Sequence record: MN218775.2
Reading direction: 5' to 3' (one strand)
DNA from: Escherichia virus ECG4
Length of the DNA: 39,253 nt
Shown here: positions 6,024-35,785 of the stretch, one piece after another
Numbering within the stretch: the first letter of the stretch is position 1
How the letters are laid out: each line of letters begins with the position of its first letter
Position numbers and translations under genes: made by a program
Notes under the pieces: generated by a model
Seen by the model: only the letters and a program-made list of their open reading frames with translations
Told to the model about the DNA's origin: nothing
Databases searched by the model: none

Positions 6024-6416
6024 ATGGTCGGCCTGAAGTTCAAGGCTCTGTTCAATAGCCTCTACCAGCCGACTGAGTTCAAGACCGGGCCTGGAGCATG
6101 CGGTAAGATTGTGACGCACTTCACCACGAGTCGAGACGAGCGGACCCTGACCATCCACCAGCACCACACGGATGGCTCTCAGAAGGACTACATGCTGAGA
6201 CTGAGCGACATCGACGGTCGCATCCAGTATGACTACGAGCAAGTTAAAGTCTATGGACAGGAGGCCGAACGTGAGCGAGCGATTCAGGCATTCACGCAGG
6301 TAAGACCGCGCATCATCTTACCCCTTTGCCTCCCATTGCCGTTAACCGTTAAAATTCCGTGTCGACGTACGTACGTACGTACGTACGTACGTACGTTGCA
6401 TGCATGCATGCACTAA
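6024..6416 (+). CDS. Hypothetical 130-aa ORF that runs into the tetranucleotide repeat tract
   Basis: ATG with GAGG 8 nt upstream. The last about 15 codons are translated from the (ACGT)n/(TGCA)n tract and the stop is the TAA of the downstream promoter, so the 3' end is not credible as native coding. Confidence 0.25.
   Translation: MVGLKFKALFNSLYQPTEFKTGPGACGKIVTHFTTSRDERTLTIHQHHTDGSQKDYMLRLSDIDGRIQYDYEQVKVYGQEAERERAIQAFTQVRPRIILPLCLPLPLTVKIPCRRTYVRTYVRTLHACMH
6357..6412. repeat. Perfect tetranucleotide tandem tract: SalI-like GTCGAC, then (ACGT)x8 (6365-6396), then (TGCA)x4 (6397-6412)
   Basis: Read directly from the sequence. Contains ATG in all three frames (6400, 6404, 6408) and three GCATGC sites; abuts the phi1.1-like promoter. 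Confidence 0.95.
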
Positions 6417-6476: not shown

Positions 6477-6514
6477 CTTTATTACTCATTTTCAATTATT
6501 GGAGCTTTACCCCT

Positions 6515-6968: not shown

Positions 6969-8017
6969 CAACTATCAAAACCAACCCGCATCGCGCTGTA
7001 GATTACTCTGAGTCAGGCGTTAAGAAAGCGCTTGAAGCTGCTGGGTCGCTGGAAGCCGAAGTGAAGTATGACGGTGTGCGGTTGAATATTCCGGTGACGT
7101 ATGAGGGTGAGACTTACTGGTTAAGCCGTGAGTCAAAAGCGCTTCCGGCCTTAGACTGTTTCAACAGTGGGTCAGGACATGCGTGCCGTGCGGCCGACTG
7201 GCGATGGTTCCTGAAGCAAGCAGGACATGAAGTCTTCGGTCTGATGATTGACGGAGAGGTGATGGTCAAGGGTGTAGACTTCAACACATCCTCAGGTCTT
7301 ATCCGCACCCTGTGGCTGACCCCAAGCAACTACAAGTGCACTGAAGGCTATCCAGGACGTAGCAACAAGGTCCCATTCCAGATAGCCCGGTTCCTACTCA
7401 AAGTGGTCGTCTACGGGGTCATCGACCTTAACATCATCAACGACCCGAAAGCCGAAGGTCCTATCCATAGCGTCACACGCCTGAAGGCCGAAGCTATCGT
7501 CCCTCTCCTCCAGAAATACTTCCCGGAAATAGACTGGGTTCTGTCTGAGTCATACATAGTGTTTGAACTTGAAGCGCTTACCTGCTTGTATGAGGAGAAG
7601 AGTTTAGAGGGCCATGAGGGTCTGGTGGTTAAAGACCCACTGGGACGCTGGAAGCGTGGCAAGAAGTCAGGTATGTTCAAGATGAAACCCGAAGAGGGCA
7701 TTGACGGTACGTTGTACGGCCTTATATGGGGAACAGAAGGTCTAGCCAACGAAGGTATGGTCATCGGCTTTGACGTTATGCTTGAGAACGGGATGGAAGT
7801 GGATCGGAAGCCTTCCACTCATGGTTCTGCTCCTCACTCAGGCCGCACGCATTTAAACTGGCGTAAGGGGTTATGCTCAAGCACTATTTATGGAAACCCG
7901 TTTGCGGGTAATCAGGTGGAAGTCCTCTTCATGGAGCGGTTCCCTGATGGCTCCCTTCGTCACCCCAGCTTCAAGTGCTGGCGTGGAACCGAAGACAACC
8001 CAACGGTGAAGTCATGA
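6950..8017 (+). CDS. ATP-dependent DNA ligase (T7 gene 1.3 homologue), 355 aa
   Basis: Adenylation motif KYDGVR (AEVKYDGVRLNI); length and position as for T7 ligase. Confidence 0.92.
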   Translation: MEYNTMTTIKTNPHRAVDYSESGVKKALEAAGSLEAEVKYDGVRLNIPVTYEGETYWLSRESKALPALDCFNSGSGHACRAADWRWFLKQAGHEVFGLMIDGEVMVKGVDFNTSSGLIRTLWLTPSNYKCTEGYPGRSNKVPFQIARFLLKVVVYGVIDLNIINDPKAEGPIHSVTRLKAEAIVPLLQKYFPEIDWVLSESYIVFELEALTCLYEEKSLEGHEGLVVKDPLGRWKRGKKSGMFKMKPEEGIDGTLYGLIWGTEGLANEGMVIGFDVMLENGMEVDRKPSTHGSAPHSGRTHLNWRKGLCSSTIYGNPFAGNQVEVLFMERFPDGSLRHPSFKCWRGTEDNPTVKS

Positions 8018-8193
8018 GTACACAACTTTATATCAACATAGCAAGTGGTCAACTCTACGCTGTGGTAAATGGCGAGCTGTGGTATCGTAAACTCAAGAAG
8101 TGGGCCAAGTCCTACTACGATGAAGAGACAATATCAACCATGAGTCATCGCTACCGTAAGGCTGCTAAGGTGAACAACTTTAAGATGCGTTAA
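8014..8193 (+). CDS. Small protein, 59 aa, translationally coupled to ligase
   Basis: ATG 8014 overlaps the ligase stop (ATGA). The track ORF 7975-8193 is the same frame with an upstream start that has no RBS. Confidence 0.5.
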   Translation: MSTQLYINIASGQLYAVVNGELWYRKLKKWAKSYYDEETISTMSHRYRKAAKVNNFKMR

Positions 8194-8275: not shown

Positions 8276-8300
8276 CCTAACCGACCTAAGGAGGAACCTT

Positions 8301-8375
8301 ATGTTTAAGAACTTAATGTTCAATCGTTTTATTACAAGATTCCACCTGTCTCACAACCCGTTCTGCTTGCATTAA
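8301..8375 (+). CDS. Possible 24-aa peptide ORF
   Basis: ATG with strong AAGGAGG RBS 6 nt upstream, directly after the promoter; very short, so weak. Confidence 0.25.
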   Translation: MFKNLMFNRFITRFHLSHNPFCLH

Positions 8376-8554
8376 GCGCAGCAACGAGTAGACTACTTCG
8401 GGAAGGCCGTTAAGCTGTCACCTACAGTTTCTTCGCTAATTACTCGCGAGTCAAAGCTGAAGGCTCGCACGAAAGGCCAACTTTACGTACCTGTGGTCTT
8501 TACAAAGTGGCCTCGCGTTCGTCTGTTCGTTGAGGTCGTGAAGGAGATGTTCTG

Positions 8555-13298: not shown

Positions 13299-15470
13299 AT
13301 GTTTGACCTTAAGAGTATCTGGGGTTCTGACATAGAGACCAACGGTCTCCTTGATACAGTATCCCAGTTTCACTGTGGGGTCCTGATTAACGCCGAGTCG
13401 AATGAGACCCTTAAGTATGGGGTAGCTCCGATGGTCGGTATCGTCGGTGGCTTCAAAGAGTATGTACAGAAGGTGGAAGAGATTGCCGCATCACCTGATG
13501 GTATGCTGGTATTCCACAACGGTATCAACTATGACGTCCCGGCTATTGACAAGCTGAAGCGTCTGTACTTTGGGAAACGCTTTAACTTCCCGAAACACAA
13601 GATGATTGATACCTTGGTGCTGGGACGCTTGATGTATCCAAACATTAAGTTCTCAGACATGGGCGCAGTGAAAGCTGGTCGTCTGCCACCTAAGATGATG
13701 GGACGCCAGTCTCTTGAGGCTTGGGGCTATCGTCTCGGTGAGATGAAAGGTGAGTACAAACACGATTACGTTGCCAAGTGCAAGGCTGAAGGTATCGAAT
13801 ATAAGGCTGGGGACGAATGGTTGTTCCCATCTCAGGAGATGCTAGACTATAACGTTCAAGACGTTGTGGTCACACTGGCGTTGTTCAAGAAGTTCCTGAC
13901 TGACAAGTATTACTTCCAGTCTGAACAGTTCGCTTTCGACCAGATTTATGCGTTGCGTCTGGAACATGATGCTGCGTGGACCTGTGCGAAGATGGAACGT
14001 AACGGCTATCCGATGAACACCGAGATGGTCGAAGGCTTATATCGTGAACTCACCGTCAAACGTGCAGAGTTGTTGGACAAGCTGCGTTCGACTTTCGGTA
14101 GCTGGTATGCACCAAAGGGAGGCAAGGAGTTCTTCAAGCACCCACGGACAGGCAAGGACCTTCCGAAGTATCCGCGAGTCGTGTATCCTAAGGTCGGGTC
14201 AGTATTCAAGAAGCCGAAGAACAAAGCTCAACGATTAGGTCTGGAGCCTTGCGAGTTCGACTCACGAGACACGATGGAAGGAGCACCGTTCACACCTATC
14301 ACTTACGTTGAGTTTAATCCGGGAAGCGGAGACCACTTAGCGAAAGTCCTGATGGAGCGTGGCTGGGAGCCTGTGGACTTCACTGACACCGGGAAACCTG
14401 TAGTCGATGACGAGACGTTAGAACACGTTAAGTTACCAGACGAAGAGGCTCAGGCTTGCGTAGAGCTGGTCCGTGAGTATCTGGTAGTCCAGAAGCGCAT
14501 CGGTCAGGCTGCTGAAGGTAAGAACGCATGGTTGAAACTTGTAGGTCCAGACGGACGTATGCACGGTTCAATCAACCCATGCGGGGCAGTAACCGGACGT
14601 GCTACTCATAGTTCACCAAACATGGCTCAGGTCCCTGCTAACGGTGCTCCGTATGGTGAGATTTGCCGTGGTGCTTTCGGTGCAGCTTGGAACAAGACGG
14701 ATGGTAAGCCAGACCCTTGGATTCAAGTGGGCGTGGATGCCTCAGGTCTTGAGCTTCGTTGTCTGGGGAACCGAGCGGCCCCGTTTGATGGTGGAGCCTA
14801 TGCGAAGACTGTGGTAGAAGGGGACATCCACTGGGCCAACGCAGTAAACGCTGGGTTAGCACCTAACGTCCCACGCGATAAGTCGAACCACGACCATGAG
14901 GCTTTCCGTAACAACGCTAAGACGTTCATCTATGCGTTCCTGTATGGTGCAGGGGCCGCTAAGATTGGACTGATAGTCGGTGGCGGTAAGAAGGAAGGTT
15001 CAGCTCTCATGAAGAAATTCATTGAGGGTACACCAGCTATCAAGGATCTGCGAGAGGCTGTGAAGAATACGTTAATCTCAGACTCTAAGTGGGTGGATGG
15101 AGAGAACATCGTCAAGTGGAAACGCCGTTGGTTGCGTGGACTTGATGGTCGCCGTATCCACATCCGGTCGCCGCACTCAGCACTTAACGCCTTACTTCAG
15201 GGTGATGGTGCGGTGGTCTGTAAACACTGGCTTGGCGAGATGGAACCTAAGCTTTACGAGGCATTTTACCTGCATGGCTGGGATGGTGACTTTGCGTTTA
15301 TGGCTTTTGTCCATGATGAAGTTCAAGTTGCCGGCCGGACTATGGAAATAGCTGAGGACATCGTTAAGGTGGCGCAATCCACAATGCGAGAGGTTGGAGA
15401 GTTCTACAAGTTCAAGTGTGTACTTGACACCGAGGGAAAGATAGGATTTACGTGGCGGGAGTGTCACTAA
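13299..15470 (+). CDS. DNA polymerase (T7 gene 5 homologue), 723 aa
   Basis: Family A polymerase order: N-terminal 3'-5' exonuclease (SDIETNGLL), then palm/fingers; length close to T7 gp5. Confidence 0.95.
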   Translation: MFDLKSIWGSDIETNGLLDTVSQFHCGVLINAESNETLKYGVAPMVGIVGGFKEYVQKVEEIAASPDGMLVFHNGINYDVPAIDKLKRLYFGKRFNFPKHKMIDTLVLGRLMYPNIKFSDMGAVKAGRLPPKMMGRQSLEAWGYRLGEMKGEYKHDYVAKCKAEGIEYKAGDEWLFPSQEMLDYNVQDVVVTLALFKKFLTDKYYFQSEQFAFDQIYALRLEHDAAWTCAKMERNGYPMNTEMVEGLYRELTVKRAELLDKLRSTFGSWYAPKGGKEFFKHPRTGKDLPKYPRVVYPKVGSVFKKPKNKAQRLGLEPCEFDSRDTMEGAPFTPITYVEFNPGSGDHLAKVLMERGWEPVDFTDTGKPVVDDETLEHVKLPDEEAQACVELVREYLVVQKRIGQAAEGKNAWLKLVGPDGRMHGSINPCGAVTGRATHSSPNMAQVPANGAPYGEICRGAFGAAWNKTDGKPDPWIQVGVDASGLELRCLGNRAAPFDGGAYAKTVVEGDIHWANAVNAGLAPNVPRDKSNHDHEAFRNNAKTFIYAFLYGAGAAKIGLIVGGGKKEGSALMKKFIEGTPAIKDLREAVKNTLISDSKWVDGENIVKWKRRWLRGLDGRRIHIRSPHSALNALLQGDGAVVCKHWLGEMEPKLYEAFYLHGWDGDFAFMAFVHDEVQVAGRTMEIAEDIVKVAQSTMREVGEFYKFKCVLDTEGKIGFTWRECH

Positions 15471-15488
15471 TGGCTATGACCAAACGGT

Positions 15489-15746
15489 ATGCGAGTTTCG
15501 TTCTCGCTGGGTGCTGTGTTTCCAACTGAAAACGTGGAGAACTTCAAGAAGACTCTCTGCGAGCTGAGCCGTAAGGTCCTCAACGGAGAGAAGACCACTG
15601 GTTTTGAGCATAAGATGGTAGAGGTTGGTGTAACTGAAGGTCTTGAAGCTGTAGTCGAACTGGTCATCAAGAAAGTTATCGTCGAGCAGCTGAAAGAAGA
15701 CCTGAGCGATTACGATAGCCAGCCGAGCTTTGGCAACTTCCGGTGA
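15489..15746 (+). CDS. gp5.5-like protein, 85 aa, with an apparent frame break at its 5' end
   Basis: ORF starts MRVSFSL...; a 19-codon ORF (15470-15529, MAMTKRY...) overlapping the gene 5 stop is one nucleotide out of frame with it. Confidence 0.5.
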   Translation: MRVSFSLGAVFPTENVENFKKTLCELSRKVLNGEKTTGFEHKMVEVGVTEGLEAVVELVIKKVIVEQLKEDLSDYDSQPSFGNFR

Positions 15747-33033: not shown

Positions 33034-35667
33034 ATGTCCACGATTACACAATTCCCTTCAGGAAACACTCGTTACAGGATTGAGTTCGACTACCTAGCCA
33101 GAACGTTTGTTGTTGTTACGCTGGTGAATAGCTCTAACCCTGCCCTGAACCGTGTACTGGAAGTTGGTCGAGATTACCGATTCCTTAATCCAACGATGAT
33201 TGAGATGTTGGTTGACCAATCAGGTTTCGACATCGTTCGTATTCACCGTCAGACTGGAACTGACTTAGTGGTAGACTTCAGGAATGGCTCAGTGTTGACA
33301 GCTAGTGACCTGACCAATGCAGAGCTTCAGGCTATCCATATTGCAGAAGAAGGTCGAGACCAAACTGTTGACTTAGCGAAGGAATATGCCGATGCTGCTG
33401 GTAACTCTGCTGGCAACGCTAAGGATAGCGAGGACGAAGCACGACGAATCGCTGAGAGTATCAAGGCATCTGGTCTTCTTGGCTATATTACCCGTCGCTC
33501 CTTCGAGAAAGGCTTCAACGTTACAATATGGAACGAGGTACTGCTATGGGAAGAGGATGGTGATTATTACCGATGGGATGGTGGACTGCCAAAAAACGTA
33601 CCTGTTGGTTCAACTCCTGAAACGTCTGGCGGCGTTGGTTTGGGTGCGTGGGTTAGTGTTGGTGATGCGTCATTGCGCGCCGATATTGCAAACCTTTACC
33701 AACCGGAACAAATTTATTCGGCACAAAAACGGGAAACACTGTCTACAGTCCTGAGCAGCCGTTGGGCTAATTCGGGAGCAGATAAAAAGAAATTCGTTTT
33801 GACCTGCCATTACTATTCCCAGATTACGATGCTATTCTGGCGGCACACCCTGACTGGACGTTTATTTATCCGGGGTCATTCTGTATCGGGGATGATGGCA
33901 AAATCTATATTACATATGGCCCAAGTAACAACGCAGCTACGGAACGTTTCGTTGTACTTTACTCAGGTGAAGGTGAATACTTACGTATCTCCAGACTATT
34001 ATTGGAGGCACCGGGGTAAATGGTTCTGCGGTATCCGAGGGATTATCGTAACCAATTACTATGGTTCACTTAAGTTATTCCTTGATCCTACGATGGTAAC
34101 TTACCTGAGTTTGATATCTCAGCAGTGCCCTACGGCACCACGATTAGCTATACAGCGTTACACCAAGTGGGTCTGGGCATTAACCGTCAACGTAATGTTA
34201 TTGCGTACTTCAACCCGCATTTGCATTAACTGGTTTCACGGAATTTTCTCCGTATCATGCTGGATACATCACGTCAACTACTACTCATTACGGGTCACTT
34301 CAAACTATGCGACAAGCAATCTGTTTAGCTCCCGGTGTTTTGATCATGGCATTTGGTGGTGTTTACATTACAGGAACAACTGTACAAGCGCCTACTATTT
34401 ATCAGGGTACAAGCATTTAGCACTGATGGGCACAAAATGGTACAGGCAGTACTACCCCTACTCATTTTATTACTGTTTTGATGCTACAGGGTTAATGACC
34501 TCTCGTATAGAGAATCAGGGTGTCTGCTATTCAAATGGTCAAGTATTTACTTTCTGGATTTATATCAATACAACTGCCTCAAATGCGTATACTATCGGTA
34601 TCCTGATTACTCAAGAATATTCGAACTCCCCGGATTTGATTTTTCTGGGGCGGTTACGGTATCCCCGGTTACGATACTGTTCGAATGGCTTCTGGGTTTA
34701 CCCTCGTATTCTCTTACAGATCTGGATGGAGTTGCCTACCCAATTGGGATACAGCTTCATATCAGCAACCTCAATAACCTCAGCTTCTATAGATCAGACT
34801 GGGCCACTACCCGTAAGACTCTGCGCGTTACTTATCACACTTCCGGTTATACCGTATTTACTGGGGCTATCGGTTTACAGACTTATCGCTTATCCCTCAA
34901 TAATACTGACTCTGGTGCATTATCCCAAGGTCGAATTGCAGCTAGGGCTTTCGGTAATAAAACTTTATCCGAATCAGAACAGATTCTTGTCCTCGATCAA
35001 CAAAGTTCCGCATCTGCACATTCTCTTATCTTACGTGGTGGATCGTCGGTATTTAAGAGTGCTACGTCTATTATATCTATACGCCATCGAATACTGCCAC
35101 CTACGGTTTCGGGCGACGGATTACTACCAAAACATACATCTCTACGTCCATACACAGATAACGCTTACAATTTACGCGGCCCAGCATTACGTGTGGCTCA
35201 AGTCTTCGCAGCGATTGGTACTATTAATACGTCCGACTCCCGTGAAAAACTTACCCGTTTCAAATCTCGGATCATATCCTTCATGCCTGGGCGACGTGCA
35301 GATAATCACGTACAAGTGGTTATCTTCTATTGCGGGTACAGGTGCAGATTCTGCTCGTTGGCATTTCGGGTATTTGCCCAGCAAGTTCGTGATGCCTTCG
35401 TATAGCATGGTTTCATGGTACTACCTTCGGTCTGCTTTGCTATGTCGAGTGGGAAGATCAGTATCAACCTCAGTTCGTTCATCAGGTTATCACTGTTATT
35501 ATTCATGGTGTAGATACCGAAGTTACCCGTCAAGTGGAAACCGGTATTACCATACTTACTACAGCTGCCGGTCATCGCTGGGGCATTCGTCCAGATCAGT
35601 GTTTCTGGTTGAGGCCGCTTATCAGCGACGTCGCTGCGACAGGATTGAAACACGACTGACTGACTGA
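33034..35667 (+). CDS. Tail fiber/tailspike ORF, 877 aa: T7 gp17-like N-terminal adaptor domain, then an anomalous central region
   Basis: N-terminal about 230 aa matches T7 gp17 ([36 protein letters not shown]). From about 33750 to 35600 the open frame encodes a Tyr/Cys/Trp/His-rich, Asp/Glu/Lys-poor sequence. The ORF ends in the three-frame stop TGACTGACTGA. Confidence 0.5.
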
Positions 35668-35690
35668 CGTACGTACGTACGTACGTACGT
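35654..35690. repeat. Perfect tetranucleotide tandem tract: (GACT)x3 then (ACGT)x6, with TGA in all three frames
   Basis: Read directly: GACTGACTGACTGACGTACGTACGTACGTACGTACGT; TGA at 35657, 35661, 35665. Confidence 0.95.
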
Positions 35691-35785
35691 GCTTGAAGGT
35701 TGTGGAGGTAGAGGCTAACTACACGCTGACCAACGTATGGTAACAGCTTTGGGTCACGGACGACCCGCTTTAAACTGGAGGTTTT

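Follow-up and report, generated by a model that had tools for sequence, protein, structure and literature searches.

A run of tetranucleotide repeats at positions 35654–35690 of the Escherichia virus ECG4 record (MN218775.2), close to the end of gene 17, is probably non-biological filler that was written into the database entry by computer and would never have been part of a phage genome. Comparison with related phages and with other public records demonstrates that the tract is confined to a small set of sister records and that it sits in an ORF which was edited. We infer that the editing that opened this ORF also gave rise to the tract, as well as the reason why it was made. The tract is not a biological feature and holds no new element or mechanism. 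All positions given below are those of the window, that is, the whole stretch of 39,253 nt that was analyzed.

Sequence and layout of the tract

On the plus strand, positions 35654–35667 read GACTGACTGACTGA, which is (GACT)3GA, and are followed by (ACGT)6 at 35667–35690, the A at 35667 being common to the two runs. Both arrays are 100% perfect according to Tandem Repeats Finder. The GACT run contains one TGA for each frame of the plus strand, at 35657–35659, 35661–35663 and 35665–35667 (frames 1, 2 and 0 relative to the ORF), and the last of these serves as the annotated stop for the gene-17 CDS (ORF 33034–35667); the stops of this three-frame string lie on one strand only. The (ACGT)6 run is a perfect 24-nt palindrome, free of stop codons in all six frames, and acts as spacer or filler. 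With up to three mismatches allowed, the window has a single copy of the complete 37-mer, whereas 100 dinucleotide-preserving shuffles have none. The preliminary description had reported a TGA for each of the three frames in a span of 11 nt, with six perfect ACGT units behind it, and direct reading of 35654–35690 confirms this.

The native gene 17/holin junction

The nearest independent phages with the same type of tail spike are ZCEC02 (PV833354) and ST1749 (PQ390404). At the junction between gene 17 and the holin gene (17.5), relatives read GACTG-GATAA-(A/G)CTTGAAGG; in ZCEC02 and ST1749 the sequence is GACTG-GATAA-ACTTGAAGG, with flanks identical to those in the window, and their junction (…ATTGAAACACGACTG-GATAA-ACTTGAAGGTTGTGGAGGTAGAGGCTAA…) encodes the end of the endosialidase, …IETRLDKLEGCGGRG*. 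Where these phages have GATAA, the window has ACTGACTG plus six ACGT units. According to the alignments to ZCEC02 and ST1749, these 32 non-native bases (35659–35690, plus strand) substitute for GATAA with a net gain of 27 nt and leave the native flanks intact; without the tract, the native junction sequence is …GACTGGATAAACTTGAAGG…. Both flanks are also present in the junctions of the K1-type Kayfunaviruses LI10P1 and vB_EcoP-U8, and the downstream flank that the window has in common with all four of these phages consists of CTTGAAGGTTGTGGAGGTAGAGGCTAA, a conserved intergenic region and the holin gene. Whereas the K1-type Kayfunaviruses have GATAA, however, the GACT/ACGT repeats in the window shorten the reading frame, which ends in …RLTD* instead of the …RL-DKLEGCGGRG* of the relatives. 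At 35692–35785 on the plus strand, now downstream of the artificial stop, gene 17 still has its native 3′ terminus (…LEGCGGRG*, stop GGCTAA), followed by the conserved intergenic sequence, and both are intact.

The limits of the replacement are sharp. All natural BLAST matches to gene 17 of the window stop at 35658, and the alignment to phage Peacock restarts at 35691 and continues gap-free to the end of the genome, while in six independent phage records one BLAST piece with 95–100% identity extends across the native junction. Not even (ACGT)3 occurs in any of 12 independent gene 17/holin junctions of Kayfunaviruses, namely those of ZCEC02, ST1749 and ten further independent contigs from metagenomes, read-archive assemblies and GenBank, in which the downstream intergenic region is kept. 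A 25-mer across the junction of the window was not found in IMG/VR, in a genome set with a single representative for each of 185,579 prokaryote species, or in JGI metagenomes; a 29-mer of the native junction likewise has no exact match in IMG/VR, a scan which is therefore uninformative and whose place was taken by the BLAST comparison with phage records. There are no occurrences of (ACGT)6 in 2.9 million viral contigs. Because no independent relative has the tract and the 32-nt replacement stands between native flanks, these comparisons demonstrate that it is not native phage sequence. The preliminary description had called the tract unlike any intergenic sequence of the T7 family and had proposed the comparison with related phages at the gene 17/17.5 junction, and on this point it was right. 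It had, however, regarded 35654–35690 as non-native throughout, which holds for 35659–35690 and fails for the initial GACTG (35654–35658), as these five bases are native and common to the relatives.

Gene 17 as a broken endosialidase gene

The ORF that ends in the tract (33034–35667, plus strand) encodes a protein of 877 aa, which is residue-for-residue identical to WEU75031.1 of NCBI. This protein is named 'peptidoglycan lytic exotransglycosylase' and is present in both NCBI and UniRef. It matches the native tail spike at aa 1 to about 220 and in short islands at which the original frame is regained by chance; the rest of the ORF is an out-of-frame endosialidase gene whose stops have been substituted away. 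With the 951-aa endo-N-acetylneuraminidase of ZCEC02 as reference, gene 17 of the window has about 20 single-base deletions, nearly all of them in G, A or C homopolymers. These deletions cause the frameshifts, and their position in homopolymers suggests errors of flow-based or nanopore data in the underlying assembly. Two larger deletions of 60 nt (at 34174) and 121 nt (at 34712) set the gene apart from all natural relatives of the endosialidase type, and a 60-nt segment at 35074–35133 is inverted: it is the reverse complement of a segment of ZCEC02 gene 17 (93% identity) with collinear flanks, and could result from either mis-assembly or editing. The protein no longer has the Peptidase_S74 chaperone domain, and gene 17 as written could not yield a functional protein. 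By the time it reaches the tract the ORF has returned to the native frame, and since the native stop follows 24 nt downstream, a new stop was not needed at this place. The motive for placing a stop string here is not obvious, which counts against the filler explanation.

Stop codons substituted out of the ORF

Between 33997 and 35653, the annotated frame is free of stops over 552 codons, against 11–55 stops in each of the other five frames. The closest public record, version 2 of LS3, differs from ECG4 in 60 codons of the gene-17 ORF, and for such pairs of near-identical records it can be asked whether the differing codons each sit one substitution from a stop, a test which is referred to here as stop-bracketing. 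In 33 of the 34 codons that differ by two bases, a stop is indeed one substitution away from both versions (for example TCA / TGA / AGA, TAT / TAA / AAA and TAC / TAG / AAG), compared to a background of 7.4%. Among the 26 single-base differences, 20 abolish a stop in another frame, ECG4 in one and LS3 v2 in the other. In the alignment to ZCEC02, 29 of the 60 differing codons correspond directly to TAA, TAG or TGA, and a further 14–18 stop removals are identical in ECG4 and LS3 v2, with ZCEC02 having a stop triplet at 29 + 18 aligned sites. One removal common to both records lies at 33955, where the window has TAC and ZCEC02 has TAG. A 42-aa ORF of LS3 v1, which is still in UniRef, ended exactly at this site, and putting the inferred stops back, to obtain a reconstructed unedited sequence, recreates this ORF. 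For nine further candidate v1 ORFs reconstructed in the same way, an exact sequence look-up found none on record.

The differences between the two purported isolates are thus concentrated on stop codons, as would be the case for a record edited in silico, and stops that are now missing are kept both in the earlier version of LS3 and in the relative ZCEC02. The stop-bracketing differences, the ZCEC02 stop triplets and the LS3 v1 stop together show that the long ORF is artificial: it is the product of roughly 50 stops that were substituted away, in two different ways in the two records. Substitutions such as TAA→TAT, TAG→TAC and TGA→TCA result in a nonsense protein rich in Tyr, Ser and Leu.

The sister records LS3 and LS2

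ECG4 is an unclassified, K1F-like Kayfunavirus. LS3 (MN518893.2), from sewage in India, is 99.2% identical to it, with 322 differing positions, and contains the identical tract. LS2 (MN518894.2), a record of the same series, has the repeat tract of the early region described below and lacks the one in gene 17. Over many kb, ECG4, LS3 v2 and LS2 v2 are 100% identical to each other, while the nearest independent phage, Peacock, is 93–96% identical. ECG4 and LS3 v2 differ at clustered sites, with 91 transitions against 221 transversions (ratio 0.41 genome-wide). Clusters of 2–4-nt substitutions (e.g., TTT/CAA/GGT) on an otherwise identical backbone were also observed among the three records, at window positions 6480–6514, 7096–7807, 8299–8504 and 15241–15516. 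Moreover, four start codons of LS3 v2 are ATG where ECG4 has GAG, CTG, TTG or TGG (window positions 2248, 5567, 13070 and 15471).

LS2 v2 shares the submitter series, the backbone and the early-region filler with ECG4 and likewise contains computer-made DNA, but its broken gene was swapped wholesale, whereas ECG4 and LS3 were patched stop by stop. In positions 33546–35711 of LS2 v2, which cover gene 17, and in positions 7730–8038, every amino acid is encoded by a single codon throughout (GCG, CTG, AGC, GTG, ATT and so forth), and its 899-aa tail spike is 96% identical to that of Peacock as protein but only 79% identical as DNA. Based on the single codon per residue and this discrepancy between protein and DNA identity, gene 17 of LS2 v2 is back-translated protein, and the single codon per residue marks the stretch at 7730–8038 as back-translated too. 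Back-translated DNA, as judged by the E. coli best-codon table, was not found in the window; LS2 v2 is the only one of the records to have it.

As the three records have one backbone and differ mainly by edits, the comparison demonstrates that ECG4, LS3 and LS2 are not independent isolates. This has a bearing on the tract, because its presence in independent isolates would contradict a non-native origin. The tract does occur in LS3, but LS3 shares its backbone with ECG4 and is not independent of it, so that this occurrence does not refute the non-native reading. The proteins that extend across the tracts are encoded by no assembly in Logan or ENA. A literature search yielded no mention of ECG4, LS3 or MN518893 in the main text of publications.

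The companion insertion in the early region

A second array of the same kind had been noted at 6357–6412, and its presence is confirmed: (ACGT)8 occupies 6365–6396 and (TGCA)4 occupies 6397–6412 (Tandem Repeats Finder). These repeats form the end of a 93-nt insertion at 6320–6412 (plus strand) that begins with 45 nt of unique sequence. The insertion is precise relative to phage Peacock, in which it is absent and of which no native base is lost, and it is identical in ECG4, LS3 v2 and LS2 v2. It lies in frame within the ORF 6024–6416, which is annotated across it. The non-repetitive 45 nt have no other match in 50,697 phage records or 72,556 plasmids. The insertion adjoins the upstream edge of a sequence resembling a T7-type promoter (CTAAACTATCACTATAGG).

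Origin of the tract

The starting point of the proposed course of events would be an assembly of poor quality from a K1F-like phage, in which the endosialidase gene (gene 17) was frameshifted and full of stops. Single-base substitutions would have taken out these stops and thereby created one long CDS, and filler might have been typed, scripted or generated during such a 'repair' of the assembly. Near the end of the gene, a string with TGA in every frame and a stop-free ACGT spacer would have been swapped for five native bases, and this string would provide the annotated stop of the CDS. The GACT run gives a stop whatever the frame, which would be handy when the frame had become uncertain after many shifts, and the ACGT run would represent stop-free padding. 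The 93-nt insertion at 6320–6412 would be the same kind of filler. As options, the preliminary description had named deliberate construction and a cloning scar as well as an assembly artefact and machine-generated sequence. The stop-substituted ORF, the alternative edits in the sister records and the back-translated gene narrow these options to editing of the record on a computer. A physical cloning scar or engineered cassette is not upheld.

An artefact of sequencing or assembly is the main alternative, though an unlikely one. (TACG)n sequence is a known type of junk in old assemblies from flow sequencing, and flow-order junk reads of this type (TACG…), or a cyclic fill of gaps or Ns, could have entered the original contig and have been carried through the later versions. 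Nearly every single-base error in gene 17 is an under-called homopolymer, as is typical of flow-based or nanopore data, and both tracts lie exactly at break points of the Peacock alignment, as would linkers at contig joins. In addition, public assemblies hold short contigs that consist wholly of (ACGT)n (L026, L042, L047, L058, L086 and L094), and these, together with L063, have the same perfect ACGT periodicity as the tract. Flow-order junk, however, takes the form of free-standing contigs of hundreds of bases, whereas here runs of 24–32 nt stand between native flanks and beside GACT or TGCA repeats. While (ACGT)n fits a flow order and the homopolymer profile is compatible with it, this does not hold for the neighbouring (GACT)3 and (TGCA)4, and no single flow order yields three adjoining 4-nt permutations (GACT, ACGT and TGCA). 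It also argues against an artefact that 6320–6412 is an exact insertion of 93 nt that includes 45 nt of unique sequence and is accompanied by no native loss, that both length changes (27 and 93 nt) are multiples of three, and that editing by hand or script is unquestionable elsewhere in the records. Filling of Ns in register with the coordinates was considered as well; the (ACGT)n runs of the two tracts start at 1 and 3 mod 4 and thus have no common phase, which is weak evidence either way.

Some observations on (ACGT)n in other public assemblies can be added. The six pure-repeat contigs, L063 and also L075 range from 210 to 1404 nt, are almost all (ACGT)n and come from unrelated bacterial drafts; free-standing contigs of this kind are presumably junk of the sequencing platform. 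In 596 Gb of prokaryote assemblies, (ACGT)6 occurs in 82 stretches, many of them in a single MAG or in short pure-(ACGT)n contigs, and these look like technical junk. Many embedded (ACGT)n runs were seen in one Metamycoplasmataceae MAG and in Moorena producens 3L.

It is very improbable that the tract is physically present in phage DNA, be it as an engineered stop or barcode or as a natural 24-nt ACGT palindrome at the boundary of the tail-spike module. If it were, the last 10 residues of the C-terminal region of the endosialidase would be cut off, and the frameshifts around it would go back to simple sequencing errors that were masked afterwards. Three-frame ('universal') stop cassettes are used in cloning vectors and knock-out constructs, and they resemble the tract in having a stop for every one of the three frames in a span of about 11 nt. 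The tracts moreover contain sites for SalI (GTCGAC), SphI (GCATGC), SnaBI (TACGTA) and BsiWI (CGTACG). It is nevertheless highly unlikely that the tract stems from a cloning scar, or from a cassette serving as universal stop or barcode, where gene 17 ends in a laboratory phage. The record describes an isolate from sewage, and a BLAST search with both tracts and their flanks against 72,556 plasmids gave no match, the flanks being native phage sequence. As the low-complexity filter of BLAST limits this search with regard to the repeat, exact-pattern scans were added. Compared with the cassettes as they are generally known, the tract has stops on one strand only, and a part of it (GACTG) is native. 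Furthermore, the gene that would be terminated is itself frameshifted about 20 times and is open only by way of substitutions that differ between two records, so the sequence as written cannot correspond to a viable engineered phage. A natural microsatellite or palindromic element, such as a hairpin terminator behind gene 17, is scarcely credible: (ACGT)6 is self-complementary and the region is predicted to fold at −23.6 kcal/mol (z = −3.2), but this hairpin is a trivial consequence of the repeat, it is followed by GCTTGAAGG and not by a T-run, neither a terminator scan nor Rfam calls anything at the tract, which rules out a terminator or structured RNA, and the tract is absent from every independent relative despite conserved flanks, as (ACGT)6 is from the 2.9 million viral contigs.

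Consequences for public records

Filler introduced on a computer, which we consider the best explanation of the tract, gives the finding its value as a database-integrity flag on three records and the chimeric proteins that they have given rise to. Edited content is present in at least three public entries labelled 'complete genome' (ECG4, LS3 v2 and LS2 v2), and across the records it includes filler strings, a mostly out-of-frame protein of 877 aa and back-translated DNA. Such records can mislead taxonomy, where species are demarcated by nucleotide identity, as well as predictors of receptor-binding proteins and host range, the building of protein families and models trained on phage genomes. 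Stop-bracketing provides a simple and general screen for this type of editing.

The intergenic region upstream of the holin gene

The stretch preceding the holin gene at 35740–35785 (ACAxCTTTGGGTCACGGACGACCCGCTTTAAACTGGAGG) is near-invariant over 14 Kayfunavirus loci in which the tail-spike genes located upstream of it are unrelated. It contains a short hairpin (GGGTC…GACCC).
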